64,000 nt of DNA from assembly GCA_052034405.1 (NCBI GenBank), contig JBPOIO010000004.1, positions 64,751 to 128,750 of the forward strand, written 5' to 3'. The notes under the pieces were generated by a model. That model was not told the DNA's origin. It made no database searches and was given only the letters and a program-made list of their open reading frames with translations. Positions 1,914 through 61,086 of the stretch are shown piece after piece (the stretch's first letter is position 1; each line of letters opens with the position of its first letter). The stretch comes from Candidatus Magasanikiibacteriota bacterium. Its GTDB lineage: Bacteria; Patescibacteriota; Patescibacteriia; Magasanikbacterales; UBA922. Both the position numbers and the translations under genes were made by a program.

Positions 1914-2417
1914 TCAGAGCGCACCCCCTTTGTGAAATGTATAACGACCACCATCGCGGGCCTGAATGTCGACCCGCGTAAAATAGCCCTCCGGCGCCCA
2001 GCCCTCCACCACATCGACGACCACCTCGGCCAAGGTCCGACGGCCAAAGAGCAGGGCCCAATCCTCACGGCTACGGACCCATGGATGCAGAGGAAAACGA
2101 TGATCTTCATCCTGAGAAAAAGAATAGAAGCTATCCCCCCAAACAGCCTCCACTCGAAACTCTGTGAAATATCCTCGTGGGGCATGCCGAATGAGGTGGC
2201 AAAGCACCTCAAAGGGCGTCATATTGGAAAATAGCGTGTGCCAGGCCTGGTGGATGGCCACACGCAGACGCTTGAGATTTTTCCTTTCATATACCTGTGG
2301 AGAATTGCTCGTAGACGTCGGCACCATGTGATGCGTGGAAAAACTATACCATTCATCAATACGATGTCCAGACCGAGCCCGCCTCGATGCCTTTTTTCGG
2401 TGTTTTGACACCTTCAC
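1914..2417 (-). CDS. Hypothetical basic protein encoded in a GC-rich (about 58% GC) island; probable start at the second GTG (2409-2411)
   Basis: The 167-aa ORF has a Lys/Arg-rich N-terminus (KHRKKASRRARSGHR). A strong SD, GGGGAGGTG, sits 5 nt before the internal GTG. A TTGACA-N17-TTCAAT promoter lies at about 2437-2472 on the minus strand, and a terminator hairpin follows directly after the stop. The base composition is unlike that of neighbouring genes. No domain was recognised. Confidence 0.45.
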   Translation of the reverse strand: MKVSKHRKKASRRARSGHRIDEWYSFSTHHMVPTSTSNSPQVYERKNLKRLRVAIHQAWHTLFSNMTPFEVLCHLIRHAPRGYFTEFRVEAVWGDSFYSFSQDEDHRFPLHPWVRSREDWALLFGRRTLAEVVVDVVEGWAPEGYFTRVDIQARDGGRYTFHKGGAL

Positions 2418-5360: not shown

Positions 5361-6452
5361 TTAATAGATAAACATGGCATCCCCAAAACTAAAAAATCGA
5401 TATTTTTCTTCAACCGCTTTTTTATAACAATCAAGCATAAATTCTTGATCTCCTGCAAAAGCACTCACCAACATCAAAAGTGTCGATTTTGGTAAATGAA
5501 AATTGGTAATCAGGGCATCAATAATTTTGAACTCAAATCCAGGTTTGATAAACATATTTATTTCTCCTCTATAGGGATGAATAAAATGATTTCGTCCATG
5601 ATCTTGATCGAGAAGCGCTATTCCTTCGAGTGTTCGGACTGTTGTAGTACCAACCGCCACTACACGGCGGCCTTCTGCTTTTGCACGATTTATTTTTTCT
5701 GCATTTTCGGGTGTGAGTTCTACCCACTCACTATGCATCGTATGATCTTCTACACGTTCTGTTTTCACGGGCAAAAAGGTTCCAAGACCGACATGAAGTG
5801 TTACTTCTGCAAATTCCACTCCTTTTTGTTTTAGCTTTTCAATTACTTCATTTGTAAAATGAAATCCAGCAGTTGGAGCAGCTACTGACCCCTCGTGTTT
5901 CGAATACACGGTCTGATACAGTTCTACTTCGTGTGGTTCGTCTTTCACATAAGGAGGAATTGGAATATGCCCATATCGATTGGCCGATTCACGAACTGCG
6001 TCTTCTTTTAAACTACTATTTTCACTCGAAAAAAATTGTACCAAAATGGTCCCAGTCGGTTCTTTGATCATCACATCACAAAAAAAATCTTTGGCAATTT
6101 CTACTCGAGTTCCAGGTTCAATATGTTTCCCAGGTTTTCCAAGAACTTGCCAGACACCATCGTTTTCCATTGGACGAACAAGAAATATTTCCACATCTCT
6201 TTTATGTTCCCACAAACCTTCGTTATTTTGTGTCAGCAATTTTCCAAGAAGTCTTGCCTTAAAAACTTTTGAGTTATTCCAAACCAGCAAATCCCCCGCC
6301 TCCAAATATTCAACAATATCAAAAAAATTTCGATGTTCCAAAGTTTTATTCTCTCGAGAAACAAGCATCAGTCGTGAATGATCACGTGGCTCTACAGATT
6401 TTTGGGCAATCAGTTCCGTTGGTAAATTGTAGTCAAAATCGGATGTATTCAT
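5361..6452 (-). CDS. queA: S-adenosylmethionine:tRNA ribosyltransferase-isomerase
   Basis: The N-terminal FDYNLPTELIAQ signature of QueA is present. The product is 363 aa and the similarity runs across the whole length. Confidence 0.92.
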   Translation of the reverse strand: MNTSDFDYNLPTELIAQKSVEPRDHSRLMLVSRENKTLEHRNFFDIVEYLEAGDLLVWNNSKVFKARLLGKLLTQNNEGLWEHKRDVEIFLVRPMENDGVWQVLGKPGKHIEPGTRVEIAKDFFCDVMIKEPTGTILVQFFSSENSSLKEDAVRESANRYGHIPIPPYVKDEPHEVELYQTVYSKHEGSVAAPTAGFHFTNEVIEKLKQKGVEFAEVTLHVGLGTFLPVKTERVEDHTMHSEWVELTPENAEKINRAKAEGRRVVAVGTTTVRTLEGIALLDQDHGRNHFIHPYRGEINMFIKPGFEFKIIDALITNFHLPKSTLLMLVSAFAGDQEFMLDCYKKAVEEKYRFFSFGDAMFIY

Positions 6453-10113: not shown

Positions 10114-10182
10114 AATTTGAGGAAGGTCAACTTGACAAAAAGGCTAAAACAAGGTATATTGCAAGCGTCTTTTTCTTGTGGA

Positions 10183-10540
10183 TGATCGCTTGAGCTTCGG
10201 CTCATGAGGAAAGTCCGAACTCCATCAAAAAGGTAGTGGGTAACGCCCACCTGCTGCATCGCGAGGTGTAGTACGGGACAGTGCCACAGAGACAATACTA
10301 CTGCAAGTTCGCTTGTAGAAAAGGTGAAAAGCGTAGGGAGGTTTTTGTCCTCGAGTCAAAAGCTACTCTACAGACGCATTTGGCGACAGATGCGTGTGGT
10401 AAACCCTACTTGGAGAAAGAGCAGCGTCCCCTTCGTAAGAAGGGTCGAAAAGTTCGCTCGTTTGAACTTGTCAGCAATGACAAGTCTAGAGAAATGATCG
10501 TCACCCGCAAGGGAACAAAATTCGGCTTAGAGCAAGAAAA
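10183..10540 (+). ncRNA. rnpB: RNase P RNA (bacterial rnpB)
   Basis: Universally conserved RNase P RNA blocks are present: GAGGAAAGTCCG (CR-I, about 10206-10217), AAGGTGAAA, and ACAAAATTCGGCTTAG (CR-V-like, about 10516-10531). The segment is GC-rich and non-coding. The overlapping track ORF 10281..10565 is therefore spurious. The end positions are approximate. Confidence 0.8.
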
Positions 10541-10547
10541 AGACAAT

Positions 10548-10580: not shown

Positions 10581-10584
10581 TTTG

Positions 10585-10667
10585 TGCGCGAGAGAGGAGT
10601 TGAACCTCCATGGGGTTGCCCCCGCTACCACCTCAAGGTAGTGCGTCTACCATTTCGCCACCCGCGC
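10585..10667 (-). tRNA. tRNA-Ser (anticodon UGA), class II with a long variable arm; CCA not encoded
   Basis: The reverse complement reads GCGCGGGTGGCGAAATGGTAGACGCACTACCTTGAGGTGGTAGCGGGGGCAACCCCATGGAGGTTCAACTCCTCTCTCGCGCA. It has a 7-bp acceptor stem with one G-U pair, the D-arm, an anticodon loop CUUGAGG (anticodon TGA), a long variable stem-loop, and the T-arm GGAGG-TTCAACT-CCTCT. Confidence 0.85.
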
Positions 10668-21068: not shown

Positions 21069-22646
21069 TTAAATCAAAGCCCGTCCACTCATCTCTGGCG
21101 GTTGTTCAAGTCCCAAAATACTCAAAATTGTTGGCGCAACGTCTGCAAGCATCCCAACCGGTGGCATAAGAGAGAGATCCCCTTCAATAGGATCCCCCGC
21201 TGGACCAGCCACTCCACGATACTGTTCACCAATAATCATAAAGGGCACAGAATTTGTACTGTGTTCTTTGTCAATTTCTCCAGTTTGCAAATTTTTTACT
21301 TCTTCCGCATTGCCATGATCTGCAGTAATGAGCAAGACCCCACCTTTGGCCATGGTATATTCGGCCAATGTACCAATCGCACGATCTACTGCTTCTACAC
21401 CCTTCACTGTTGCTTCCATATTCCCCGTATGCCCAACCATATCTGGATTTGCAAAATTCAAAAATATCACATCATATTGTTCTGCCTGAATTACTTTTAC
21501 TGTTTCTTTTACAATCTCATCTGCCGACATTTCTGGAGCCAAATCATAAGAAGCTACTTTTGGTGAAGGAATAATTTTGCGATCTTCTCCAGGAAAAGCT
21601 TCTTCACGAGTACCATTCAAAAAAAATGTTACATGCGCGTATTTTTCTGTTTCTGCAATATGAAATTGTTTCAGTCCTGCTTTACTAATCACTTCTGCCA
21701 AACAGTTACTTACCACCTGTGGAGGGAAAGCAACGGTCACGGGCAATTCTTTTTCGTATTCTGCCATGGTCACAAAAAACAGATCCTTCATGTATACCCG
21801 ATCAAATTTTGTAAAACCAGGAAGCACAAAAGCCTGTGCCAGTTGACGTGCACGATCTGGACGAAAGTTAAAAAATATCACTGAATCTCCATTTTCAATC
21901 TTGGCCGTAGGAGCACCTTCGGATCCAATAACCGTAGGAACAAATTCTTCGTCATATACTTTTTTGGCATAGGAAGCTTCTACTGCACTCACAGCGTCAG
22001 TTGCATACACATCTGCCCGACCATCGGTCATAGCAAGATATGCTTTTTGTACACGATCCCAACGATTATCACGATCCATGGCAAAATAACGACCTGACAA
22101 TGTTGCAATTTTTCCTACTCCAAGTTCTTTCATTTTTGCTTCAAGAAGTCGAACAAAATCAACCCCAGCATTGAAAATCGTATCGCGACCATCCAAAATT
22201 ACATGAACATAGACTTTATTCAAGCCCTGACGCTTACAAAATTCAAGTAAAGCAAACAAATGATCCTGCGAAGCATGCACATTCCCAGGACTCACAAGCC
22301 CGAGTAAATGTATAGGTTTGTCCGCAGATTTTGCATGCTCAGCAGCCTTTACAAAAGCAGTATTATCAAAAAAACTTCCGTCCTGAATACTTTTATTAAT
22401 GAGTGGAAATGTCTGGTAATATACTCGTCCTGCCCCAATATTGAGGTGTCCTACTTCACTGTTTCCCATTTCACCAAATGATAATCCAACTTCAGAACCC
22501 GAAGCGAGCACGGTCATCACTGGATATTCACGAATAAATTTGTCCCAATTTGGTTTATTCGCGCGAGTAATAGCATTGCCATCACTGTCTGGAGCAACGC
22601 CAAATCCATCCAAAATTGCAAGTACGAGTGGTTTAGGTCGAGGCAT
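21069..22646 (-). CDS. gpmI: 2,3-bisphosphoglycerate-independent phosphoglycerate mutase (iPGM), copy 1
   Basis: The N-terminal signature reads LVLAILDGFGVAPDSDGNAI...GSEVGLSFGEMGNSEVGHLNIGAGRVYYQ, and the C-terminal metal-binding motifs are ADHGN and DMVGHTG. The product is 525 aa. Confidence 0.93.
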   Translation of the reverse strand: MPRPKPLVLAILDGFGVAPDSDGNAITRANKPNWDKFIREYPVMTVLASGSEVGLSFGEMGNSEVGHLNIGAGRVYYQTFPLINKSIQDGSFFDNTAFVKAAEHAKSADKPIHLLGLVSPGNVHASQDHLFALLEFCKRQGLNKVYVHVILDGRDTIFNAGVDFVRLLEAKMKELGVGKIATLSGRYFAMDRDNRWDRVQKAYLAMTDGRADVYATDAVSAVEASYAKKVYDEEFVPTVIGSEGAPTAKIENGDSVIFFNFRPDRARQLAQAFVLPGFTKFDRVYMKDLFFVTMAEYEKELPVTVAFPPQVVSNCLAEVISKAGLKQFHIAETEKYAHVTFFLNGTREEAFPGEDRKIIPSPKVASYDLAPEMSADEIVKETVKVIQAEQYDVIFLNFANPDMVGHTGNMEATVKGVEAVDRAIGTLAEYTMAKGGVLLITADHGNAEEVKNLQTGEIDKEHSTNSVPFMIIGEQYRGVAGPAGDPIEGDLSLMPPVGMLADVAPTILSILGLEQPPEMSGRALI

Positions 22647-22795: not shown

Positions 22796-24370
22796 TTAAA
22801 TTAAAGATTTTCCAGTCATTTCTTTTGGCTTTTTAATACCAAGCAATTTTAATACAGTTGGAGCGACATCTGCAAGTTTTCCACTCTTTGCCTTCATTTT
22901 TTTCTTGAACAAATCTTTTTGCACAATGATAAACGGCACTGTGTTGATTGTGTGCTCGGTCAAATGTTCCCCTGTTACTTCATCAAACATTTCTTCGGCA
23001 TTGCCATGATCTGCCACAATCACTACGGTTCCATCTCTACGAAGTGTCGCCTCCACAATACGCGCCACAGCCCGGTCTACTGCTGTTACAGCAATCTTTG
23101 CAGCTTCAAAATCTCCTGTATGCCCAAGCATATCTGCATTTGGAAAATTCACACAGAAAAAATCAAATTTGCTCGAAGCCAAATATTTGAAAATACGTTT
23201 TGATATTTTTTTGATACTCATTTCTGGTTTCTCTGCATAGGACATTTCTTCAAAAGAAGAAACAAGTTCACGAATTTCACCATTAATGGCTTTGGCAAAT
23301 CCCCCATTCATAAAGTAAGTTACATGGGCATATTTTTCTGTCTCCGAAATAAAAAGCTGCCTGCGATTTTCACCAATCGCTTTTGCTAAACAATTTTGAA
23401 TATCTGGACTTGGAAATGCCGTCAAAATCCCTAGCAAGTCAGGACCAAAATCAGTAAGAGCCACAAAGCAAATATCTTTCAAGACTTTTTTTCTTTTGAA
23501 ACTTTCTATATTTTCTTCTTCAAAATCTTTTTGCACAATCGCCTTGGTAATTTGACGTGCACGGTCACTACGACAATTGAAAAAAATTACTGCATCATAA
23601 TCATTCATCTGAGCAATAGCTTTTCCATGCTCGGTAATAATCGTCGGAGTAATATATTCATCTGTTTCTCCTCGATTGTATCCGTGTTCCACCGCAGCTT
23701 CTGCACTTGGCGCTTTATGCATTCCTTCATCGAGCGTCAAGACATTGTATGCTTTTTCTGTACGATCCCAATTTTTGGCACGGTCCATGGCATACATGCG
23801 CCCCATGATACTAACAATTTTTTCATTGCCAGTCATATGTGTTCGCAAAATTCGAATATATTCTGTAGCAGAATGTGGAGAAGAATCACGACCATCGGTA
23901 AAGAGATGCAAATACACTGGAATTGTTTTTTCTTTTTTGAGCATGTCGAGAATAGCATAGAGATGCTCTGGATGTGCATGCGCACTTTGTCCATCGGTCA
24001 AAAGTCCCATCAAATGAATCGCACTTTTATTTTTGTGTGCATGTTCAATGGCTTTTTTGAGTGCAATATTTTTAAAAAATCTTCCGTCATCAATTTCTTT
24101 TGAAATAGTCACAAGATCTTGTTCGACGATACGTCCGGCACCAATATTGAAATGCCCCGCTTCACTATTGCCCTCTTGATCCGGAAAAAGTCCGACAGCT
24201 TCGCCATGAGCAGTAAGTTGTGTTGACGGATATTGGCGCATATATTCAAAAATATGCGGTGCCGTTTTGGGCGTAATAGCATTCCCAGGTAATTTGTGGT
24301 CACGAAGACCAAAGCCATCAAGGATAATGAGGAAAAAAGGTGAGTTTTTGGAAGTCTTTTTGGTAATCAT
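22796..24370 (-). CDS. 2,3-bisphosphoglycerate-independent phosphoglycerate mutase (iPGM), divergent paralog, copy 2
   Basis: The product shows FFLIILDGFGLRDHKLPGNAI...GEAVGLFPDQEGNSEAGHFNIGAGRIVEQ, ADHGNAEE and DMLGHTG. It is 524 aa and roughly 35-40% identical to copy 1 by eye. Confidence 0.9.
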   Translation of the reverse strand: MITKKTSKNSPFFLIILDGFGLRDHKLPGNAITPKTAPHIFEYMRQYPSTQLTAHGEAVGLFPDQEGNSEAGHFNIGAGRIVEQDLVTISKEIDDGRFFKNIALKKAIEHAHKNKSAIHLMGLLTDGQSAHAHPEHLYAILDMLKKEKTIPVYLHLFTDGRDSSPHSATEYIRILRTHMTGNEKIVSIMGRMYAMDRAKNWDRTEKAYNVLTLDEGMHKAPSAEAAVEHGYNRGETDEYITPTIITEHGKAIAQMNDYDAVIFFNCRSDRARQITKAIVQKDFEEENIESFKRKKVLKDICFVALTDFGPDLLGILTAFPSPDIQNCLAKAIGENRRQLFISETEKYAHVTYFMNGGFAKAINGEIRELVSSFEEMSYAEKPEMSIKKISKRIFKYLASSKFDFFCVNFPNADMLGHTGDFEAAKIAVTAVDRAVARIVEATLRRDGTVVIVADHGNAEEMFDEVTGEHLTEHTINTVPFIIVQKDLFKKKMKAKSGKLADVAPTVLKLLGIKKPKEMTGKSLI

Positions 24371-24482
24371 AGTACAGATAGTATAACGGATTTAGATATG
24401 TTTATCAATGAAGGATATTGACTTTTAGGCTAAAAATGATAGGGTGATACTAGACCAACGTCACCCAAGAAGGGGGTGCATC

Positions 24483-25286
24483 ATGCTCTGGTATTTCGTG
24501 TCCGCGGGTCTCGGCATTCTCGCCGGGATCCTAATCGGTAAAGCCCTGCAAAAGCGGGGCGAACCACAACGGATCGATGAAGCCATCGACAATGCAATCA
24601 AGACAGAGCGGGCCGAAGTCCGCAAGAAGGAAGAAGCAAATCTCCAAACGAGCCACCACGAGGTGGCGAAGTTCCTGAGCAACCACATCAAAGATCCAGG
24701 AGTAACCTGGGACATTGTAGAACTCTACAACGTCCGCAGCAAGATCAGCCTACGCCTGCTCCTCGGACTCGGGCAAGATAGCCCGATTCTGCTGACGGCA
24801 ATCCTGGCTTCCCACCCCAGCGGAGCTGACGGAACTTTCTTCAGGATGGCGCGCCCGGCGAATATGAGTTCGCCTCCGAATCTGATCACTCCACAACCCG
24901 ACTGGGATGTTGGGATTGCTCAGATCCGCCAGAAGATTCTGATTGTCCCGCAGATCCTGATGTTCAGTGTGATTCCTCGTGCCTACAGGCAAGCACAGTC
25001 CGAAAGCATGAAGACACAGATGAACCCAGGTCTCGGAATGCCACAGGCCTCTTCGCCACCGGCAACGCCCAACGACGAACCCACCCCCGAACTGGTTGTG
25101 GTCGAACCCAGCGCAGCGGCGCAGCGACTGGAAGACGCCGATCCTGACGTCCAGGCCCGCGCAACAGCTGCCCTGACCGAAGCCAAGGCAGCGCATCCTA
25201 TCCCCCCCGCCGACACGGCCCCAGCCGAGACCGAGGCGCCGCGCCCCGAACGCAAGACTCTGGCCTGGACCCCCAAGGGGGGCTGA
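24483..25286 (+). CDS. Hypothetical membrane-anchored protein with a Pro/Ala-rich C-terminal tail, encoded in a GC-rich (about 60% GC) island
   Basis: This is the track ORF 24444..25286, with the likely start at the internal ATG (MLWYFVSAGLGILAGILIGKAL, a TM helix). It has GC-rich third codon positions, an SD-like AAGGGGGTG 4 nt upstream, and a possible TTGACT-N16-TAGGGT promoter. The tail is PPATPNDEPTPELVVVEPSAAAQRLEDADPDVQARATAALTEAKAAHPIPPADTAPAETEAPRPERK. No domain was recognised. My nucleotide reading and the track frame differ by 1 nt near 25260. Confidence 0.45.
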   Translation: MLWYFVSAGLGILAGILIGKALQKRGEPQRIDEAIDNAIKTERAEVRKKEEANLQTSHHEVAKFLSNHIKDPGVTWDIVELYNVRSKISLRLLLGLGQDSPILLTAILASHPSGADGTFFRMARPANMSSPPNLITPQPDWDVGIAQIRQKILIVPQILMFSVIPRAYRQAQSESMKTQMNPGLGMPQASSPPATPNDEPTPELVVVEPSAAAQRLEDADPDVQARATAALTEAKAAHPIPPADTAPAETEAPRPERKTLAWTPKGG

Positions 25287-25294
25287 GCCAACCA

Positions 25295-25398
25295 CCCCGC
25301 GCGTACGATGCGCGGGGATCGTTCATTCACCACACGCAGGTCGCCGACGGCTGCGTGTCCCGCCATCTGTGCCACGAGGAGGGAACCCGTCGGCACAG
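25295..25398. other. Three consecutive perfect GC-rich hairpins (25295-25317, 25332-25358, 25367-25398) in the 3' region of the GC-rich gene
   Basis: The three hairpins are ccccgcgc-gtacgat-gcgcgggg, acacgcag-(11 nt)-ctgcgtgt, and ctgtgcc-(18 nt)-ggcacag. The 18-nt loop of the third contains GAGGAGGG. They resemble a REP-like or structured 3'-UTR module. Confidence 0.4.
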
Positions 25399-25407
25399 CA
25401 AAAAAAA

Positions 25408-25434
25408 CTCTCTTCTTTCGAAGGGAGTTTTTTT
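25408..25434. terminator. Bidirectional terminator (ctctcttc-tttc-gaagggag plus T7), preceded by an A-run
   Basis: It lies between the GC-rich plus-strand gene and the convergent ruvX (minus-strand stop at 25445). Confidence 0.6.
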
Positions 25435-25444
25435 GATCTACAAA

Positions 25445-25834
25445 CTAGAGAGAACTATTCTTTTTGCTAAGATAGGTTTCAAGGATAATCATGGCAGATT
25501 TTTCGTCCACACTCGACTCCCCTCCCATATTGTTGGCTTCGTGTGTAGAAAAACGTTCATCCACAAAATGCATAGGCACTTCTACATGTTCTTTGAGCTT
25601 TTCGGCGAATGTTCGAACACGTCCAGTGGCTTCGGTTTCTTCATTATTCATTCCAAGAGGAAGACCAAAAACAATCTCTTCAAAGTCTTCTTTCAAAACC
25701 AAATCTTTTATATTCAAAAATACTTTTGGCTCAAAATTTTGCATGCTTCCAAAAGGAAACACAATATCAAGATCAGTATCTGTCATAGCAAGACCAAGAG
25801 TTTTTGTTCCAAAGTCGATAGCGAGGATCTTCAT
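25445..25834 (-). CDS. ruvX: Putative pre-16S rRNA nuclease / Holliday-junction-resolvase-like protein YqgF
   Basis: The N-terminus MKILAIDFGTKTLGLAMTD is the RNase H-like YqgF signature. The 129-aa size fits. Confidence 0.8.
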   Translation of the reverse strand: MKILAIDFGTKTLGLAMTDTDLDIVFPFGSMQNFEPKVFLNIKDLVLKEDFEEIVFGLPLGMNNEETEATGRVRTFAEKLKEHVEVPMHFVDERFSTHEANNMGGESSVDEKSAMIILETYLSKKNSSL

Positions 25835-25843
25835 AAAATATTT

Positions 25844-26659
25844 TTATTCGTTTGGTCTTCGGGTAATTACCTCTGGACCTTTTTTTGTAATAATAACAGT
25901 ATGTTCAAAATGCGCACTCATACTTCCATCAGCCGTCTGTATACTCCAACCATCATTTGCTGTTTTTACTCTCCACGTACCAAGAGTAATCATTGGCTCA
26001 AGAGCCAGCACCACATTTTCTTTCAAGATCCACTGCTCGAGTTCTTCGTTATAATAATTGGCAACATGAGGTTCTTCGTGCACCGCATGACCCACACCAT
26101 GCCCAACCAGATCTCGTACAATACCATACTTCCCTTGAGAATCAACATAGTCTTCGATAGCGCGACCAATATCCGCAACAGTATTTCCAATAACACACTG
26201 CTCCAAACCTTTTTCCAAAGAAATTCTTGTTACTTCAAGTAAGTCTCTATATTCTTTTGAAATTTTTTTACCAGCCACAACAGTCAGTGCTGTATCCACA
26301 AAAAATCCATTTCCATTTGGCCCAGCCCCGCAATTTGCGGGGTACTGCATACCAATATCAAGACTCACCAAGTCCCCTGCCTGTATAATTTTTTCTGCAC
26401 TCGGAATCCCATGCACCACTTCGTCATTGAGAGAAAAACACAAAGTTCCTGGAAAAGGTGTATCTCCACGACGAGTTTTGTATCCTTTGAAAGCAGGAAC
26501 ACCACCAGACTCTAGAATTAATTTTTCTGCCATTCGGTCAATCTCCAAACTGCTAACCCCAGGTTTGATCATTTTTTCAAGGGTTTCCAAAATTTCGCCC
26601 ATCTTTCGACCGCCTTCACGCAAATACTTTATTTCTGAAGATTTTTTTGTATATGACAT
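25844..26659 (-). CDS. map: Methionine aminopeptidase, type I
   Basis: The metal-binding residues are in the expected context: D...D (LVSLDIG), H (VGHGVGHAVHEEP) and E...E. The product is 271 aa. Confidence 0.93.
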   Translation of the reverse strand: MSYTKKSSEIKYLREGGRKMGEILETLEKMIKPGVSSLEIDRMAEKLILESGGVPAFKGYKTRRGDTPFPGTLCFSLNDEVVHGIPSAEKIIQAGDLVSLDIGMQYPANCGAGPNGNGFFVDTALTVVAGKKISKEYRDLLEVTRISLEKGLEQCVIGNTVADIGRAIEDYVDSQGKYGIVRDLVGHGVGHAVHEEPHVANYYNEELEQWILKENVVLALEPMITLGTWRVKTANDGWSIQTADGSMSAHFEHTVIITKKGPEVITRRPNE

Positions 26660-40682: not shown

Positions 40683-42205
<1,523 letters not shown>

Positions 42206-42601
42206 TGAAAAGTAAAATAGTAAACTATCTTACAGATGTAAATCCCCAAATAAATGGGGCTTGAGATCTTGATAAATCTATAGACTCTTGTTTTGTATTC
42301 TTTCGAATACGGGTTCTTGTCACATTTTTATTGTGAATTTTTTACATTTTTGTTTCCTTACCTTTTTGTTGCATTTTGGTTGTATTCAATTGTAGAGAAC
42401 GCTTTCTCGAACGAGCCAAGAAAGAAAAAAGAGAAACCAATATATGTTCAGTTGCTCTTTTTTCTATCCTAGTTTTCTGCATTTGCAGAGCCTTGAGGAA
42501 GGGAGTTTTTTAAGTTGTAGCTCTTCTTGTTTTGTGGCCGTATTGTATATGAAGAATTATCCCCTGTCAAGTGCTGCTATTTTTGAAAAACTGTGGATAA
42601 G

Positions 42602-43381: not shown

Positions 43382-46300
43382 TTAAAGAGAATTGAGCACC
43401 GAGCGAGTTCCAGGACCTACAATTCCAAGATCTTCAAGGCCATGAGCACGCTGAAATGCTTTTACAGCTTCGACAGTCACAGGTCCATATAGTCCTGTTG
43501 TTTCATGATTGAAAAATCCTTGGGAAGCCAATATTTTTTGGAGGGCTTCTACTTCGCTGCCACTATCATTGAGAACAAGTGAATGTGTAAAAGTAAAACC
43601 CGAAGAAAGTGTCTGTCTATTGGGCAACAAAGAAGACTCTTCTCCAATTTGAGTTCCATCTCCATAAATGCTTGAAGCAGGAAGACGAATAATACGATCG
43701 GTTCTATAATTTAAACTTTTCCAAGCTGATTCACTCGCAATATAACGTTTCAGAAAAATTGAACTGTCTGCCACACTTGGTTCAAGAAAATACAAACGAG
43801 GAGAGTCTGCATACCCAATCACACTCAAAGCAGGTGCTTCGTTTTTTGAAATGACATCACCTTCTGCAAACATATCCAAAAGTTCCTGCGCTACATCTTC
43901 TACATAATTCCACTCAAAACCAAGACTCTTGAATATTTCTTCACTCGTAATAACGTGTTTTTTACCATTTACCAACAAATAAACATTTGGATCAGATACC
44001 ACTTTCATAAGAGTTCCATTTTGTGGAGCATATCGAGGACCCCGTGGCATAAATCCAAGTGCATCATCTGGAATATTTGCCAAATCTGCTTTTGGAACTA
44101 CCTGGACATCACTCCAAGAAGCAAAATAACTAAAGAATATTGGAGATGCTTTAAATGCACGTTTTGTACATGAACCTTCTATTGGCTGACCATCTTTGTT
44201 GTAAGGTGGAGTAATATAGTACACAGCATTTGAGTCGGGAGATTTGTAAGGACGACCCAAGTGTAAAGAACAACTTGTCATACTATGCAGCAACTGAATG
44301 CTCGCACTCGTGTCAAAAACACCTCCTGATTTTGAACGAAATCGTACGTATACGGTCTTTGGTCCATCTCCAAATGGAAGCGCCCAGACAGAACTGGTAG
44401 TAAATGTTTGGAAGGTTGCATCACTAAAATCAGGATTATTTGAAATTGCAACAAAAGATGCATTTACGATATTAAACTGCATATGTACCATACGAGAGAA
44501 TGTTTGCTTTGCTCCATTATTGATAAACACTGGAAGGAGTTCTTGTATTTCTGTAAAAGTAAATTTTGGATTTTTACCAAGCAAACCATCATACACAACA
44601 CGAAGATCAGGAATTCCATTTTTATCCGTATCCAAAATTTGAGCAATGTCTTTTTTCAAATGAACAACAATTGGCTCTGATTCAATAACAAGTACAGCCT
44701 CATCAGCACTTGCAGATACACGAATCACACGGTGAGAAGATGAAGGAAAATTGAGAGATTCACTATCTTTTGTCGTAAATACAATAGAGATATCACTCTC
44801 TCCGTTATTACTCAAAAGCGGAACGAGAGGAACACTTGGAATAGTCATAGCCCCTCCACCACCTCCAGCTTTTATAGGATCGCTCACAGCATCATTATCT
44901 GTAATATGTGCTGTTATATCTGCAATCACAATACCATTATATGAGATATCTGCAGAAAGTGCCGTTGCGGTAAGAGTACTTGTATGAGCACCCTCATCGA
45001 CAGCATCATCTACTGCAGTAACAGTCACTTCTACTGGAATGTTCCAACGATCTGGAGTAAAAGTAATACTGGTTGTAGAAAGCGTTGATTGTGCATCTGA
45101 AGCGAGCGTAACAACTACATCCGCTGTAGGAGTAGAACCAAGCACAAGAGTATAGCTATCGCTCGATCCAGCTTCAGAAATATCAGTCGAAGCAACACTC
45201 TCTACTACATTTATTCCAACTCCATCGTCATCAATATTTGTGACACTTACGTCATCAGGATTGAGTGCATTATAATGTGCATCTCCAGAAACTGCAGCAT
45301 CCAAAACTATACTAAAATCAATATCTCCATCATCAAAATAATCATCAACTCCGCTTACGGTTATAGTTCGTGGAATATTCCAATCTGCAGGCCCAAAAAC
45401 AAGAGTGCTGCTATTCACTGTTCCCTCTGTTAAATCCGAACTTGAAAGAGTTGTTGTTACAGGACCACTTGGCTCAGAATTCAAAACAAGTGTAAAAGTA
45501 GCCGTTGTTCCTGCTTCACTGGTATCTCCAGAAATAAGAGATACAGTAAATCCAGCAATATCATTATCGGTAATATGAGCAGTCACATCAACAATCGCAA
45601 GACCATTATAATTTGCATCGAGTGAAGAAGCACTTGCTGTAATTGTAGAGTCATGAGGATCTTCGACACTATCATCATTGAAAGCGCTTACTGTAATTGT
45701 TTGAGCAACATTCCAATTTGTAGAAGTGAAAACAATACTACTGGTTGAAACCGTCGACTGTGCATCTGGAGTTATTGTAATAGTGACATCATTTATTGGT
45801 TCTGTATCAAGCACAAGTGTATAGCTATCTGTTGCTCCACCTTCTGTAATATTTGTTGCTCCACCACTTTGGGTAAGACTTATTCCAGCAACATCATTAT
45901 CTGTATTTAGAGCATCTACATCACTGGCATTGAGTCCATCATAGTTATCATCAGTTGAACTTGCAACGCCATTTACAAGAGAATAGTTGATGGGACCATC
46001 CGCAATCAAATCATCAACTCCAGTTACAGTAACTGTTTGTGGGATATTCCAATTGAGTACTGTAAAAGTAAGCAAAGCTTGATCCACAGTAGCTTCACTT
46101 GCATCTGAACTTGATACTGAAATAAAGACATCATCTCTTGGTTCTGAATCCAAAACTACAGTATAGGTAGAAGTTGTTCCGCTTTCACTGGTATCACCAG
46201 AAATAGCAGAAACAGTAATACCTGCAGTATCATTATCTGTAACATTTGCGATTACATCACTTGTTGCAATAAGGTCATAGTTGATATCGAGAGAACTTAC

Positions 46301-49300
46301 GGTATGAGTAATTGTAGAAATATGCAACCCTTGGCTCACAGCATCATCGACAGCAGTAGTTGTTACTACACGTGGGATATTCCAATTGGCAATATTAAAC
46401 ACCAGAGAACTTGTCGAAATTGTTGAGGCCGCATCCGAAGTAATTTCAATTGTTACGTCTGCAAGAGGAAGTGCATTTAATACAATGGTATAAGAATCTT
46501 CAACACCACCTTCGGTAATATCAGTTGTTCCAAGTGACTCTGTCACTGTTACGCCTGGAGTATCGTTATCAATAACATTTGCCGTTAAATCAGCAATAGC
46601 AATTGCATTGTACGCTGCATCGAGAGAATCTGCGCTGTGAGTAATCACACTTGTATGTGGTCCTTCTACATCCGCATCGTCTTCTGCCATAACGCTTACA
46701 GATACAGGGATATTCCAAGTCGAACTGCTAAAGCTAATAGAAGTTGTTGAAAGTGTCGACTCCGCATCAGGAGTAAGCGTAATAGTAACATCCGAACTTG
46801 GCTTGGAATTCAATACAATAGTGTAGCTATCGCTAGCTCCCCCTTCGGCAATATTTGTCGTATCCGCACTTTGAGCAAGGGTCACTCCAGCGCTATCATT
46901 ATCGGTGATATGTGCCGTAATATCTGCCACCACAATAGCATCATACCCAGGATCAGTACTGGTAACACTGTGTGTCAGTGTAGAGTCATGAGCTCCCTCG
47001 GCAACAAGATCATTTACCGCCGTTACAGTAATAGTTTGGGCGATATTCCAAGTGCTGGTAGTAAATTGAATGGAACTTGTTGAAAGTGTCGCCTCTGCAT
47101 CTGCTGCAATATGCACAAAAACAGTATCCAAAGGTTCTGAACTCAAAACAATTGTATAACTATCTGTAACACCAGCTTCAGTAATATTTGTAGTACCAGC
47201 TGATTCTGTCAGAACCACACTATTACTATCATTATCTGTAATATGTGCTGTTAAATTTGGGATAATCACAGCATTATACTGCACATCATCTGACGATACA
47301 GTCTGAGTAATTGTTGAATCATGCGCTCCTTCTGTAAGACTATCATCTACAGCAGTCACAGTAATTGTCTGTGCAATATTCCAAGTTGTACTTGTAAAAA
47401 TAATACTCGAAGTCGAAAGTGTACTTTGTGCATCTGAAGTTAGAGTAATGCCCACAGTAGAACTTGGCTCAGAAGTAAGCACCAGTGTATAACTATCTGT
47501 AGCCCCACCCTCTGTAATATTTGTAGCAGCCGCTGACTCTGTCAAAGTTATCCCAACATTATCATTGTCTGTAACATTTGCAATAACATCAGGAATAGCC
47601 AAAGCATCGTAGGCTGGGTCAGTACTCGTCACACTATGAGCAATAACAGAGTTATGTCCTCCCTCAGCAAGATGATCATTCACAGCAGTCACGCTAATAG
47701 TTTTTGCAATATTCCAAGTGCTCGTTGTAAATATAATACTTGAAGTAGAAACTATACTCTGTGCATCTGAGGTAATATTTATTGACACGTCCCCTGTTGG
47801 CTGTGAGTTGAGTACCAAAGTATAGCTATCACCCGCAGCACCCTCTGTAATATCGGTTGTTCCCGCAGATTCTACAAGAGTAATTCCTACGCTGTCGTCA
47901 TCGCTATTGGTAACAGATACATCAGCAGGATTAAGTCCCGCATAGTGAACATCTGTAGAACTTGCAGTATCAAGAATTATACTATAGGCAATATCTCCGT
48001 CGACCAAATCATCATCAACACCCGTAACAGTCACCGTACGAGGCAAATTCCAAGAAGCAGCATCAAAAACTAAAGTACTGGTATTGATCGTTCCCTCTGT
48101 TGTATCCGAACTATGTACTGTTGTGGTGACTGTGCCACTTGGAGGACTATCAAGAACAACCGTAAAAGTAGCAGTACCCCCCGCCTCTGTTGTGTCCCCA
48201 GAAATAAGAGAAACAGTAAACCCAGCAGCATCATTGTCGCTTACATTTGCAATCACACTATCAATCGCAATTCCATCATATCCAAGGTCAGTAGAAGTTG
48301 CTGTATGTGTAATCGTACTGGTATGGTCACCTTCGGCAATAGCATCGTTAAGCGCTGTCACCGTAATAGTCTGAGCAATGTTCCAATTCAAAGGGGTAAA
48401 TACAATAGAACTTGTTGAGATTGTACTTTGAGCATCAGGACTCAAACTCAGAGCAACATTTCCTGTTGGCTCTGAATTCAATACAATCGTATAACTATCT
48501 GTTCCTCCCCCTTCGCTAATATCCGTTGTTCCTGCAGATTCGCTAATAGTCACTCCAACACTATCATTATCTATATTGGTTACAGATACATCTGCTGGAT
48601 CAAACCCATCATAATTCAAGTCTGTTGAAGTTGCTGTATCCAAAATTATCGAATAATCAATATTACCATCAACAAGAGCATCGTCCACACCTGTCACTGT
48701 CACCGTTCGAACAAAATCCCAATCATCCGGACTAAATACAAGGGTAGAGGTATTTATAGTTCCTTCTGTAGTATCAGAACTATGTACTGTTGTAGTTACA
48801 ATTCCTGTAGGAGGAGTACTCAAAACAACCGTAAAGGTTGCTGTACCACCAGCTTCTGTCGTACTCGCAGAAATGAGTGATACAGTAAATCCTGCTGTGT
48901 CATTGTCTATGACATTTGCTACCACATCCACAATAGCAATACCATCATATCCTGGATCAGTTGAGGTAACAGAGTGAGTAATCGTTGAAAAATGAGCCCC
49001 TTCATCAAATATATCATCGACCGCAGTAATTGTAAGAGTCTGAGCTACATTCCAATTTATTGGAGTAAAAACAATACTCGAAGTAGAAATAGTCGAGTCT
49101 ACATCAGCACTTAGACTCACAGCAACATCTCCTGTTGGTTGCGAATTCAAAACAATCGTATAACTATCTGTCGCTCCACCTTCTGTAATATCTGTCGTTC
49201 CTCCTGACTCAACAAGAGTTATCCCAACAACATCATTATCAATATTTGTAACAGCAACATCTGATGGATTTATTCCAGCATAGTTGACATCGTCCGTTGA

Positions 49301-52300
49301 AGTCGCCGTATCCAAGATAATTGAATAATTGATATTCCCATCTGCCAAAATATCGTCTACCCCAGTAACCGTCACAGTTCGTGCCAAATTCCAAGATCCA
49401 GGACTAAATACCAAAGTTGAAGTTGTAATCGTTCCTTCTGTTATATCACTACTATGAATCGTTGTGGTTACAATTCCTGTAGGAGCTGCATCCAAAACAA
49501 CCGTAAAGGTTGCAGTACCACCAGCTTCTGTCGTACTCGCAGAAATGAGCGATACAGTAAATCCTGCTGTGTCATTGTCTGTAATATTTGCGGTGACAGA
49601 CCCAATCATAATACCATCGTAAGCACCATCGGTACTGGTTGCACTATGAGTAAGGGTGCTCGTATGGGCTCCTTCAACTACAGCATCATTTACAGCGGTT
49701 ACAGTAATAGTTTGTGCGGTATCCCAATTTGCTGGAGTAAAGACAATACTACTGGTAGACACAGTGGCATCAGCATCAGCACTCACACTAATTGCAACAT
49801 TCCCTGTTGGTTGAGTATTCAAAACAATGGTATATGAGTCTGTTGCTCCGCCTTCTGTAATATCTGTTGTCCCTGCAGACTCGGTCACTGTCACTCCAAT
49901 AGTGTCGTTATCTGTATTTGTAACATTGACATCATTTGGGTTTATTCCTGCATAATTTACATCCACAGTAGACGTTGCAGTATCAAGAATAATTGTATAT
50001 GCAATATCACCATCACTCACAAAATCATCGACTCCGGTCACGGTCACGGTTCGAGGAATGTTCCAGTCATTGGAATGAAATACGAGTGTACTGGTAGTAA
50101 TCGTACCTTCAGTTGTATCACTACTGTGAATAGTGGTCGTCACAACTCCACTTGGCTCAGAATTTAATACCACAGTAAAAGTAGCAGTAGCACCAGCTTC
50201 ACTTGTATTTCCAGAAATCGCAGAGACGGTAAATCCAGCAGTGTCGTTATCCGTTACGGTGGCAACCACATCTCCAACCGCAATACCCTCATACCCCTCA
50301 TCCGTACTTGTGACGGTATGGGTAATGGTACTACTATGTTCACCCTGTTGAACGGCATCATCAACCGCTGTCACAGTGACGGTTCGTGCCACATTCCAAT
50401 TTGAAGTTTGAAAGGTAATACTACTGGTTGAAAGAGTTGACTCGCCATCTGTATTAAGATGAATTGCTACATTTCCCGTAGGCTGAGTATTCAAGACAAT
50501 AGTATAGGTATCAGTAGCTCCCCCTTCGGTAACATCCGTTGTACCGTCAGATTCTACTAAAGTCACGCCAGCACTATCATTGTCAAGATTGACCAACATA
50601 TTTACATCATCTGGATTCATACCATCGTAATTTGGATCTGTCGAAGTTGCAATATCCAAAATAACACTATTTGGCTGATTTCCATCATCAATATCATCAT
50701 CAACACCCGTCACAATCACAGTTCGGGTAAGATTCCAATCCTCAGGACTAAAAACCAAAGTACTTGTATTGATTGAATGTTCTGTCGCATCAAGAACATG
50801 AACGGTTGTAGTGACAATTCCTGAAGGCTCCGAAGTCAAAACAACAGTAAACGTTGATGTAGTTCCGGCTTCACTCGTATCACCCGAGATAGCAGAGACG
50901 TCAAATCCTGCAGTATCATTATCTGTAATATTAGCAGTTACATTTGGAAGAACAAAAGCATCGTATCCAGGATCTGTTGAGGTAACCGTATGGGTGATTG
51001 TAGTTGTATGTCCCCCTTCTGCAATAGCATCATCAACAGCTGTAACCGTAATAGTTTGGGCCACATTCCAATTCGCAGGAGTAAAGACAATACTACTCGT
51101 AGAAAGAGTAGATTCCGCATCTGGAGAAATACTTACCGCAACATGAGCACTTGGCTCTGTATCAAGTACAAGTGTATAACTATCCGTTGCTCCACCCTCT
51201 GTAATATTTGTTGCTTCAAAAGATTCTACAAGAGTAATACCTGCAGTATCATTATCGGTATTTGTAACAGATACATCAGCAGGATTCATACCACTATAAG
51301 TAAGATCCGTACTTGTAGCACTATCCAAAATTATAGAATAAGCAACATCTCCATCATCAACACTATCATCAACGCCAGTAACTGTCACCGTACGAGGCAA
51401 ATTCCAAGAGTCAGCATCAAAAACCAAAGTACTCGTGTTGATCGTTCCCTCTGTGGTATCCGAACTATACACCGTTGTCGTTACACTTGCACTTGGTTGA
51501 CTATCAAGAACAACAGTAAAAGTAGCAGTCCCACCAAATTCACTCGTATTTCCAGAAATTGCTGATACTGTAAATCCCGCTGTGTCATTGTCTGTAATAT
51601 TGGCAGTCACACTCGCAACAGCAATTCCATCATAATTTGCATTGGTACTAGTCACAGTATGCGTAATAACACAAGTATGTCCACCTTCTACAACACTATC
51701 ATCCACAGCTGTAGCAGTAACCGTTACCGCTCTATTCCAGTTTCCAGAAGTAAAAGAAATAGAACTTGTCGAAACAGTACATTCTGTATCAGAAACAAGA
51801 GCAATGTTGACGGTTCCTGTTGGAGCACTTGTCAACAGCAAAGTATAGGAATCTGTCAAACCTGCTTCGCTTATATCAGTAGTTCCCCCACTTTGAGTCA
51901 CTGTTACTCCTGCGCTATCATTGTCTGTAATATTAGCAGTAACCGAAGCAATTACAATAGCATTGTAATCACTGTCAGTACTCGTAGCACTATGCGTAAT
52001 AGTAGCACTGTGCAAACTCTCTGAATAGTCATCGTCAACAGCTGTCACTGTGATAGTTTGTGCAACATTCCAATTTGCAAGAGTAAATACAATACTTGAT
52101 GTTGAAAAAGAAACCTGTGAATCCGATGCGATATTTACAAAAACATTTCCTGTTGGTAAAGAGTTCAGTACTATAGTATAGGTATCTGTAGCAGCAGCTT
52201 CTGTAACATTGGTAGAACCAGCACTTTGACTGATCGTAACCCCCGCAGAGGCAGGAGCTTCGTTATCCGTATTTGTTACAGAAACATCCAAAGGGTTTAT

Positions 52301-60255: not shown

Positions 60256-61086
60256 TTATCTACTTGCGAGGTATTTTTCTACCGCTGCGCGAGTGATTGG
60301 CCCAAAGTATCCTGTTGAAGGAACTCCTGCTGGGAAAAATCCAAGTTTTTTGAGAGTATTTTGAAGTGCTACTACTTTTGGTCCGCGCATTCCAAAGTGC
60401 AAAGCTCCAACGATATCATCGGTACTTGGAGTTTCTGGAGCTGGAGTAGGAGCTGGTGTTGCAGGAGTATTCACACTTGCAAGGTATTTTTTTACAGCAG
60501 CTTCTGTCACAGGTCCCCAAAATCCAGTTGAAGGAAATCCTGCTGGAAAAAATCCAGCCTTTTTGAGAGCGTCTTGAAGCATTTTTACTTTTTCACTACG
60601 CTCACCACGGCGAGTTTCAGCGAGCAATCCATCAATATCAGTGATTTTTTCACCCAAAACTTCTTGTGGAGCAGCATTCAAATTGATTGAATCTGCCAAA
60701 ACTGGTGAGTTATTATTACTATTTGGGCGGAAAAATTTTACATACACTGTTTTCACCCCAGCACCTTCAGATAAAGTCCAAGGGAGAGAAGATTGATATG
60801 GAATTACTGTTGTATCAGCAAAATCTGGAGTATTTGAGATTGCCATTCCACTTGCATCTTTTCCACCTTCGAGATGAAGCATAACATTTGTAGATGCAGT
60901 ACTCTCGGCATCGTTATTGATAATCACATGAAGTGAAAGGTCAGGACGAGGAGCTCCACCACCTCCACCACCACGATGTCCACCACCTTCACCTCCACCA
61001 CCATAACCAAAAGCATGGCCAAATCCGACCAAAGAGAGTGCAACTGCCGCAGTTGCTACCAAACCAGTTTTGAGAAACTTGTTCAT
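60256..61086 (-). CDS. Secreted protein with two C-terminal peptidoglycan-binding (PG_binding_1-like) repeats and a Gly-rich segment
   Basis: The product has a signal peptide (MNKFLKTGLVATAAVALSLVGFGHA) and a GGGGEGGGHRGGGGGG segment. Its middle domain, NTPDFADTTVIPYQSSLPWTLSEGAGVKTVYVKFFRPNSNN, resembles a C-terminal-region segment of the giant protein (NNPDFSDATFQTFTTSSVWALPFGDGPKTVYVRFRSKSGG). Two PG-binding repeats follow, LQDALKKAGFFPAGFPSTGFWGPVTEAAVKKYLAS and LQNTLKKLGFFPAGVPSTGYFGPITRAAVEKYLAS. Confidence 0.6.
   Translation of the reverse strand: MNKFLKTGLVATAAVALSLVGFGHAFGYGGGGEGGGHRGGGGGGAPRPDLSLHVIINNDAESTASTNVMLHLEGGKDASGMAISNTPDFADTTVIPYQSSLPWTLSEGAGVKTVYVKFFRPNSNNNSPVLADSINLNAAPQEVLGEKITDIDGLLAETRRGERSEKVKMLQDALKKAGFFPAGFPSTGFWGPVTEAAVKKYLASVNTPATPAPTPAPETPSTDDIVGALHFGMRGPKVVALQNTLKKLGFFPAGVPSTGYFGPITRAAVEKYLASR

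Follow-up and report, generated by a model that had tools for sequence, protein, structure and literature searches.

This report concerns an island rich in guanine plus cytosine (GC) within a stretch of 64,000 nucleotides, hereafter the window, of contig JBPOIO010000004.1 from a Candidatus Magasanikiibacteriota bacterium. The island lies between the second of two tandem iPGM paralogues and ruvX, and its borders were placed by cumulative-deviation analysis at the change-points 24452 and 25399. Inside these borders the GC content is 0.56-0.72, to be compared with a window mean of 0.397 (0.60 overall versus 0.40), and the predicted promoter and the terminator which flank the island are both at 30% GC. 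The sharp compositional jump described in a previous reading of the DNA, made from the letters only (the sequence-only reading), is thus real. The island contains one gene on the + strand (24483-25286), here called gene X, three GC hairpins and a bidirectional terminator, and it is one complete single-copy transcription unit extending from a predicted start at ~24452 to the terminator at 25399-25435. The features of the locus are the following:

24418..24445, + strand: putative sigma-70-type promoter of gene X, read from the sequence
24452..24482, + strand: 5' untranslated region (5'UTR) of gene X, 58% GC, where the GC jump starts
24483..25286, + strand: gene X, a listed open reading frame (ORF) for an orphan protein of 267 amino acids (aa); GC at third codon positions (GC3) 0.67
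24486-24548 (residues 2-22), + strand: N-terminal transmembrane (TM) helix, from hydrophobicity and an AF2 helix
residues ~26-70, + strand: charged helix, part of the 267-aa protein
24693-25037 (residues ~71-185), + strand: conserved core of ~115 residues under purifying selection
25038-25283 (residues 186-267), + strand: disordered Pro/Ala/Glu tail, which closes with RPERKTLAWTPKGG
25295-25302/25310-25317, + strand: hairpin 1, perfect 8-bp stem CCCCGCGC / GCGCGGGG, 10 bp in the predicted fold
25332-25339/25351-25358, + strand: hairpin 2, perfect 8-bp stem ACACGCAG / CTGCGTGT, whose loop holds GCCGACGG
25343-25350 with 25387-25394, + strand: long-range helix of GCCGACGG with CCGTCGGC, from a pairing search
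25367-25373/25392-25398, + strand: hairpin 3, perfect 7-bp stem CTGTGCC / GGCACAG with inner pairs and GGAGG in the loop
25399..25435, no strand assigned: bidirectional intrinsic terminator of gene X (+) and ruvX (-), made of A8, a 15-bp stem (25401-25415/25420-25434) and U7
22796..24370, - strand: left neighbour, second of the two tandem iPGM paralogues (Pfam iPGM_N and Metalloenzyme)
25445..25834, - strand: right neighbour, ruvX, convergent with gene X (Pfam RuvX, E = 1.8e-29)

Gene X is a protein-coding gene: the ratio of non-synonymous to synonymous divergence (dN/dS) is close to 0.1 in the core, frame and stop are both kept, and the GC content of the three codon positions follows the order GC1 > GC2 < GC3. 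The values are 0.65/0.47/0.67 for GC1/2/3, in agreement with the GC-rich third positions reported earlier, and GC3 is ~0.30 in the neighbour genes. Over the central 160 codons dN/dS is 0.08-0.18 with dS reaching saturation, every indel in the codon alignment of the homologues is a multiple of three, and the ATG, the Shine-Dalgarno (SD) sequence and the stop are kept across the homologues. An upstream in-frame extension has been called in some assemblies. In the window a TAG closes this extension, which also overlaps the predicted promoter, and the ATG at 24483 is therefore the start. At the other end, the sequence-only reading had fused gene X in frame with a downstream antisense ORF and had suspected a 1-nt ambiguity near 25260; neither claim survives. 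The ORF closes at the TGA 25284-25286, and over 24449-25356 there is no difference (100% identity) to L005, a Logan assembly made independently from the same run. The G6 run and the stop of the sibling assembly L001 are both the same as in the window, the 295-aa + strand ORF (25355..26242) uses a different frame, and the homologues stop at the equivalent place, in every case ~10 nt upstream of hairpin 1. This 295-aa ORF is an antisense shadow of ruvX and map, and two further shadow ORFs of 181 and 137 aa lie opposite gene X on the - strand (24750..25295 and 24983..25396). Such shadow ORFs, antisense to real genes, could mislead annotation.

The anatomy of the product is consistent with a membrane-anchored protein. 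The N-terminal TM helix proposed earlier was recovered both as a Kyte-Doolittle 19-residue maximum of 1.93 at residues 10-15 and as a helix at residues 2-24 of the AF2 model. Basic residues flank the cytoplasmic side of a TM helix according to the positive-inside rule. No basic residue precedes the helix of gene X and K/K/R (or R/R/K) follow it; because the basic residues stand only after the helix, a short N-terminus outside and a cytoplasmic body are predicted. The 82-residue tail is Pro/Ala-rich and acidic, as had been noted (33 P+A, 13 D+E and 7 K+R). Its resemblance to proteins of high-GC Gram-positive bacteria had been read as a sign of the source, but any disordered segment encoded by GC-rich DNA would look alike, and the tail should not be taken as evidence for an actinobacterial origin.

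The predicted promoter of gene X consists of a -35 element TTGACT (24418-24423), a 16-nt spacer and an extended -10 element TGaTAGGGT (24437-24445). A consensus promoter scan did not list it. The pattern TTGACT-N16-17-TAG..T is kept in the sibling assemblies L008, L012 and L016 and is absent from L014 and L018, in which the site is empty. The promoter of iPGM points away from gene X (match to TTGATA-N17-TATACT, - strand, 24408-24380). The SD-like sequence that had been seen upstream of the gene is AAGGGGGTG at 24470-24478, 4 nt ahead of the ATG; it is conserved in all homologues and complementary to the 3' terminus of the 16S rRNA encoded in the window (...CACCTCCTTT). A 'GACCAAC' similarity between the 5'UTR, the region after the stop and the 5'UTR of the island-1 homologue is not conserved and was judged to be due to chance.

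The three perfect 7-8-bp GC hairpins announced ahead of a bidirectional terminator were all found in place, and the folding energy of the 157-nt 3' region is -71.2 kcal/mol (z = -5.35 versus shuffles). The description of the hairpins as consecutive needs a correction: the long-range helix between 25343-25350 and 25387-25394 had been missed, so that the hairpins are not simply consecutive. This helix would form an H-type pseudoknot with hairpin 2 or would be an alternative to hairpin 3. It is pairable in 6/6 full-length sequences, including L012 (one G-U), with no covariation. In hairpin 1 the stem is kept and the loop varies within the window clade, and the hairpin is not present in L016 and L012. 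Hairpin 2, loop included, is 100% identical in 7/7 sequences of the window clade despite a synonymous distance of 0.84 substitutions/site, and L016 shows a compensatory C-G to G-C change in it. Hairpin 3 is kept in the window clade and L016 and not in L012. In L002, L006, L007 and L008 there is an extra 3'UTR hairpin with two compensatory pairs, deleted in the window and L001. Over the 3'UTR and terminator together, five pairs have changes on both sides, as compared with 0-1 in slid controls. The motif CCGTCGGCAC is the sole island motif common to all three lineages that carry the unit.

The element at 25399-25435 has the stem-loop, the U-tract and the preceding A-tract of an intrinsic terminator, 100% of the cells of its stem are paired in the alignment, and two pairs show compensatory changes. 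It is AT-rich and host-like in look, it has an equivalent at the empty site of L014, and a simple terminator scan did not list it. Hairpins 1-3 are not terminators, since no U-tract follows them. They probably stabilise the 3' end of the gene X mRNA and block read-through from the convergent ruvX. The hairpin-2 loop and CCGTCGGCAC are strictly conserved, a hint that a sequence-specific partner is involved too. This part of the island may function as an element at the RNA level. Five independent short Logan contigs (L004, L005, L006, L008 and L009) end a few bases past hairpin 2, at positions equivalent to 25353-25361. Their end points vary by several bases, and an effect of the GC hairpins on coverage or assembly is more likely than a structural polymorphism.

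All homologues of gene X whose flanks are available have the second iPGM paralogue on one side and ruvX on the other, with both neighbours on the opposite strand and the flanks AT-rich. The order iPGM, X, ruvX was observed in L001, L002/L003/L010, L007, L008 and L011, which are independent JGI, NCBI, ENA and Logan assemblies of different samples, and all homologues are as GC-rich as gene X (GC3 0.67-0.74). L008 is the most distant member of the family; at 4-fold sites it stands 0.84 from the window in gene X and 0.91 in the iPGM next to it, and because these two distances match, gene X diverged together with its flanks. These results dispose of the recent capture proposed by the sequence-only reading: homologues of equal GC occupy the same slot in at least six independent sibling assemblies with a divergence equal to that of the flanks, an outcome which that reading had itself set against its proposal. 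As for the neighbours, the two iPGM paralogues (21069-22646 and 22796-24370, - strand) are 43% identical and stand side by side in all sibling lineages examined, and the first copy is split into two ORFs in L001.

Four further lineages (L012, L014, L016 and L018) were reached through RuvX homologues. By the identity of the flanks, L012 is sister of the window clade, and L016, L018 and L014 form a second clade. In L014 and L018 the site is empty and comprises ruvX, the terminator and the iPGM promoter, ~95-105 nt in all. In L012 and L016 the slot is occupied, on the same strand, by a GC-rich gene (GC 0.60 and 0.54; 227 and 215 aa) whose product is built like that of gene X: a short N-terminus, a TM helix, basic residues, a charged helix, a core and a Pro-rich tail. 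The L012 and L016 proteins are clearly related to each other (z = 16 versus local shuffles). The core profile of gene X did not pick them up, though both were in the searched library; hhalign aligned the last 13 residues only (RPERKTLAWTPKG and APQRPTLGWDPKK, E = 0.18), and shuffles of local composition gave z values of -0.9 to 2.2. Between L016 and the window, hairpins 2-3 are 75% identical, the terminator 92% and the flanking genes 73-75%, and the coding parts are at 32-36%, that is, unalignable; L012 keeps CCGTCGGCAC and the terminator. By these alignments the non-coding parts (promoter, 3'UTR and terminator) are homologous across the lineages. The locus as a whole is old and orthologous, because the promoter, hairpins 2/3 and the terminator align from one lineage to another, with a coding part that has either diverged beyond recognition or given way to another one between the conserved ends. 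Either the unit was lost on at least two occasions or it spread between lineages. In L016 the same slot holds an additional AT-rich orphan gene of 302 aa without a family match (5397-6305, + strand), which supports the view of the ruvX-iPGM slot as a hot spot for accessory genes.

Within the window clade the different parts of gene X have different histories. The N-terminal helix and the tail change quickly and accumulate indels, and the core is held constant. The tail of L002 and L006 differs by a dS of 0.09 and their core by 0.68; for the window and L002 the core dS is 0.17 and the N-terminal dN 0.55; for L007 and L008 the N-terminal dN is 0.11 and the core dS 1.5. The nearest neighbours of the three segments thus differ by segment. 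The neighbouring iPGM is mosaic too: over 23500-24400 the identity of the window is 95-96% with L003 and 82-92% with L001, and from 26950 on it is 100% with L001, a pattern which indicates a recent recombination between strains beside the island. Since the segments have different nearest neighbours and the adjacent iPGM is itself mosaic, the alleles of gene X are being shuffled by recombination. Polarised third-position changes in the window clade are in excess from G or C (S) to A or T (W), with 50 S>W and 16 W>S (p = 3e-5); because of this excess, gene X is seen to drift towards the composition of its host.

Relatives, a function or a donor were sought in several collections. A word-indexed search of 5.8 billion protein clusters returned six homologues of gene X, 60-100% identical, and a full HMMER profile search of 1.84 billion representatives returned its own cluster and one spurious match, P0007, discarded as Pfam identifies it as a protocadherin-like repeat protein. 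The six homologues aside, some 15 billion proteins yielded no detectable relative. No family was found in Pfam, NCBIfam, PHROGs or PADLOC at E values up to 0.1-1, the best match of the profile among PDB sequences was not significant (E = 0.37), tblastn against phages and plasmids gave no match, and scans of viral contigs with both protein families (gene X and the L012/L016 gene) gave nothing. Over the island, Rfam 15 gave no hit at the gathering threshold and, up to E = 10, only chance-level matches far below it. The nearest named RuvX is that of Candidatus Magasanikbacteria. A scan of the GTDB genomes found one contig only, filed under an 'uncultured Gammaproteobacteria' metagenome-assembled genome. 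This contig, CAZQRI010000007.1 (L002/L010), has a gene order and sequences which fit the lineage of the window, within the candidate phyla radiation (CPR, Patescibacteria); it is probably mis-binned or mislabelled. In the 5.8 billion clusters, the 1.84 billion representatives and the phage, plasmid and viral collections, no homologue of gene X stands in any context other than the iPGM/ruvX slot, and the capture from a high-GC host or phage put forward earlier finds no trace in them.

The unit was also compared with known classes of elements. The amelioration framework for horizontally acquired DNA is reportedly that of Lawrence and Ochman, from 1997. Like horizontally acquired islets and orphans, the locus is a single accessory gene with atypical composition, presence/absence polymorphism, fast evolution and no known function. 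Unlike them, it has no donor, mobility gene, tRNA or border repeat, it is GC-rich in an AT-rich genome (an unusual direction), its anomaly lasts through ~1 substitution per synonymous site and a complete turnover of the coding part, and this anomaly coincides exactly with the transcribed region. Two of four islet traits are present, deviating composition and presence/absence polymorphism; a donor lineage or unrelated homologues, and mobility signatures (integrase/transposase, tRNA target, repeats), were not found. The only tRNA of the window is a tRNA-Leu at 10584-10667, and no direct or inverted repeats of at least 7 nt connect the island borders. An insertion sequence or a miniature inverted-repeat transposable element was rejected in the absence of terminal repeats. 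An integron cassette was rejected as attC core sites (RYYYAAC, GTTRRRY) occur neither in 25287-25400 nor at the 5' border. A target of a diversity-generating retroelement was rejected as well: nothing in the window resembles the island as a template repeat (blastn word size 7, best match 18 nt), and the alleles differ by indels and by all types of substitution.

The proposal of a module like the repetitive extragenic palindromic (REP) elements was not borne out either. REP elements are many dispersed copies of one palindromic unit in intergenic regions. As with enterobacterial 3'UTR stem-loops and REP elements, the island has GC hairpins without a U-tract between the stop and the true terminator in a convergent intergenic region. 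Unlike them, its hairpins are non-repetitive (a single copy in the 64 kb, and no other in the scanned collections), the loop of hairpin 2 is conserved too, and a pseudoknot to the segment just before the terminator is possible. With up to 3 mismatches, the patterns of hairpins 1 and 2 each occur a single time in the window, a window-wide repeat search gave no family that includes the island, and the 25-mer of hairpin 2 occurs in metagenome contigs only at this same locus and in no viral contig. A REP element was rejected on the single-copy state of the hairpins. Two further likenesses are of resemblance only. Like lactococcal Sie-type phage-exclusion or abortive-infection proteins, gene X stands alone between a promoter and a terminator of its own, encodes a protein anchored in the membrane at its N-terminus, deviates in composition, is patchily distributed and diversifies rapidly with mosaic alleles; unlike them, it has no match in PADLOC or PHROGs, and no prophage or defence-island context is visible. 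With ZipA, YhcB/ZapG and the N-terminus of RNase Y it shares a short N-terminus, one TM helix, basic residues, a long charged helix and Pro-rich disorder, but these are conserved housekeeping proteins, whereas gene X is dispensable, hypervariable and without a Pfam or NCBIfam match.

The only other stretches of the window above 50% GC are the 16S rRNA gene (40684-42209), the RNase P RNA (10170-10545), a second island near 1820-2440 and two short patches at 441-800 and 60861-61060. The second island holds, within 1823-2417, a GC-rich orphan gene of 167 aa on the - strand (1914..2417; GC 0.54, GC3 0.54 versus ~0.30), with three homologues in the 5.8 billion clusters and no family match. A 77%-identical homologue in the sibling contig L020 stands at the same place beside tgt and is also GC-rich. 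The gene is followed by a perfect hairpin, GGGACACA-TC-TGTGTCCC (~1880-1897), whose 2-nt loop is GA in L020.

Taken together, these results are best explained, with a probability of about 0.6, by an accessory gene cassette which is restricted to one lineage, diversifies fast, looks foreign in composition and has a structured 3'UTR, with gene X as an ancient foreign gene in slow amelioration. The slot between the ruvX terminator and the iPGM promoter is variable in a small clade of CPR bacteria. There an AT-rich, host-type promoter would drive gene X, whose orphan product would have a single N-terminal TM helix, a predicted cytoplasmic bulk with a charged helix and the ~115-residue core, and a disordered tail with a conserved C-terminal motif. 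Three or four stable GC hairpins without a U-tract would guard the 3' end of the mRNA and insulate it from ruvX read-through, and transcription would end at the shared AT-rich bidirectional terminator. The unit is older than the splits of the sibling species and inherited vertically within the clade, some siblings having lost it or never gained it. Its coding part evolves far faster than the flanks, with recombination between alleles reshuffling it, and the foreign-looking composition would reflect an ancient acquisition from an unsampled GC-rich source followed by a slow drift towards AT. Of all this, the parts of the locus, the coding nature of gene X, the shared synteny, the presence of the unit in some siblings and its absence from others, the mosaic of alleles, the conservation of structure in the 3'UTR and the lack of a donor in the collections are observed, and the promoter with its start, the topology, the work of the hairpins and the foreign source are inferred. 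Horizontal transfer into Patescibacteria, membrane-related genes included, has been documented (PMC12455944). A role of gene X in conflict or interaction, for instance phage exclusion or contact with a host cell, is a speculative suggestion, more likely wrong than right, drawn from its dispensability, its rapid mosaic evolution, its atypical composition and its self-contained promoter-gene-terminator unit.

Several observations weigh against this explanation. The collections searched gave neither a donor nor a distant homologue, so that foreign origin is read from composition alone, and no mobility gene, tRNA, attC core or border repeat was found at the island. Homology between gene X and the L012/L016 gene is not demonstrable at the protein level, and a hyper-diverged version of the same gene is indistinguishable from a replaced coding part. 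The AF2 model, built on a 6-sequence alignment, is unusable (mean predicted local distance difference test, pLDDT, 39), and promoter, topology and the role of the hairpins are all predictions. The compositional estimates point in the same direction, within the limits of small counts, a parsimony polarisation with one outgroup and a crude decay model: with an F81 decay calibrated on 4-fold sites of the flanks (0.9 within the clade, 1.26-1.36 between lineages), passive decay would need an ancestral GC at 4-fold sites (GC4) of ~1.0 or more to give the 0.67-0.76 of today, and the S>W/W>S rate ratio is ~3-fold weaker in gene X than in the flank. A passive amelioration of gene X is thus only marginally tenable.

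These estimates raise the tentative alternative that GC is actively maintained over exactly the transcribed region, by selection on the RNA or by GC-biased gene conversion at a recombination hot spot, in which case the gene could be native and old and not foreign. Possibly, though the odds are against it, a ~950-nt transcript is held at 60-70% GC by one force in a 40% GC, AT-drifting CPR genome, with a protein that turns over almost completely; the force could be selection on RNA, GC-biased conversion at the hot spot, or continual re-import from a GC-rich partner organism. The GC-rich stretch spans the predicted start at 24452 to the first A-tract base of the terminator at 25399, and GC4 is 0.67-0.76 (0.53 in L016) in three lineages of which the coding parts are unalignable (32-42% nucleotide identity) and the UTRs and flanks are at ~75%. 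Passive decay would leave at most 0.59-0.64 even from a GC4 of 1.0, the implied equilibrium GC3 is 0.43 in gene X versus 0.20 in the flank with the same estimator, recombination in and around the gene is clear, no donor was found, and the second GC-rich orphan (1914..2417) is likewise conserved beside tgt in a sibling lineage at a flank 4-fold distance of 0.72. However, the S>W excess (50:16, p = 3e-5) places gene X off compositional equilibrium, the fold of the coding part is only modestly more stable than that of shuffles (z = -2.8, 20 shuffles), a sharp stop at transcript ends is not what GC-biased conversion would be expected to give, and the small counts, one-outgroup polarisation and crude decay model apply here as well.

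The remaining explanations fare worse than the ancient cassette. GC-rich DNA contains few stop codons, so that long reading frames open easily, and gene X could have been born de novo from a GC-rich non-coding insert such as a former structured RNA or the remnant of a mobile element. The orphan protein is limited to one narrow clade, the prediction gives disorder or low confidence for over half of its length, long antisense ORFs occur in the island too (24750..25295 and 24983..25396), and the 3'UTR is the best-conserved part between clades. Strong purifying selection on the core (dN/dS ~0.1), the ordered succession of TM helix, charged helix, core and tail, and the chance-level Rfam matches up to E = 10 nevertheless make such a birth improbable. 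A capture by this genome in recent times from a high-GC host or phage would account for the contrast of composition with the genome, and CPR bacteria are generally thought to live attached to host cells; it is very improbable in view of siblings which hold the same slot with flanks up to 0.9 substitutions per 4-fold site and an equal divergence in gene X, of UTRs common to more distant siblings, and of the absence of any match in phage, plasmid, viral-contig and global protein collections. That the island should be a structured non-coding RNA gene, with the ORF as a mere by-product of high GC, is hardly credible. Other GC-rich patches of the window are indeed RNA genes (16S rRNA and RNase P RNA), and the last 110 nt on the 3' side are strongly structured, but the codon-type substitutions with a core dN/dS of ~0.1, the indels in multiples of three, the conserved start, SD and stop and the lack of an Rfam family speak otherwise, and a purely non-coding RNA for 24483-25286 was rejected on dN/dS and frame conservation. 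The joining of reads from a GC-rich organism into a CPR contig would produce sharp compositional borders, and several short Logan contigs finish near the island borders or just past hairpin 2. Such a chimera is practically excluded, as the junctions on both sides recur in JGI, NCBI, ENA and Logan assemblies of different samples, being common to six independent ones (L001, L002, L003, L007, L008 and L011).

Some other observations were made in the window. A giant ORF of 4057 aa (43382-55555, - strand) consists mostly of ~27 tandem repeats with a period of 333 nt (111 aa). The 16S rRNA gene (- strand) carries CAGCAGCAGCGGTAATAC at the site of the universal 515F primer, which is normally CAGCAGCCGCGG, and standard amplicon surveys may miss this organism given this difference. 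The RNase P RNA and the tRNA-Leu are the only RNA genes found in the window besides the 16S rRNA gene.

These findings give an example of a lineage-specific accessory gene in a CPR genome, and they show that a sharp GC island in such a genome can be something other than an RNA gene, a chimera or a fresh transfer. A gene that diversifies rapidly, shuffles its alleles and keeps a structured 3'UTR bears the signature expected of one which interacts with a phage or a host; for these organisms such partners are largely unknown. That GC has stayed high while the sequence turned over so heavily does not easily fit the usual view, in which foreign DNA decays to the composition of its new genome. If GC is actively maintained, the second GC-rich orphan (1914..2417) would be another instance, and, if the effect is real, the island, small and with clear borders, would lend itself to the question of what determines local base composition in streamlined bacteria.

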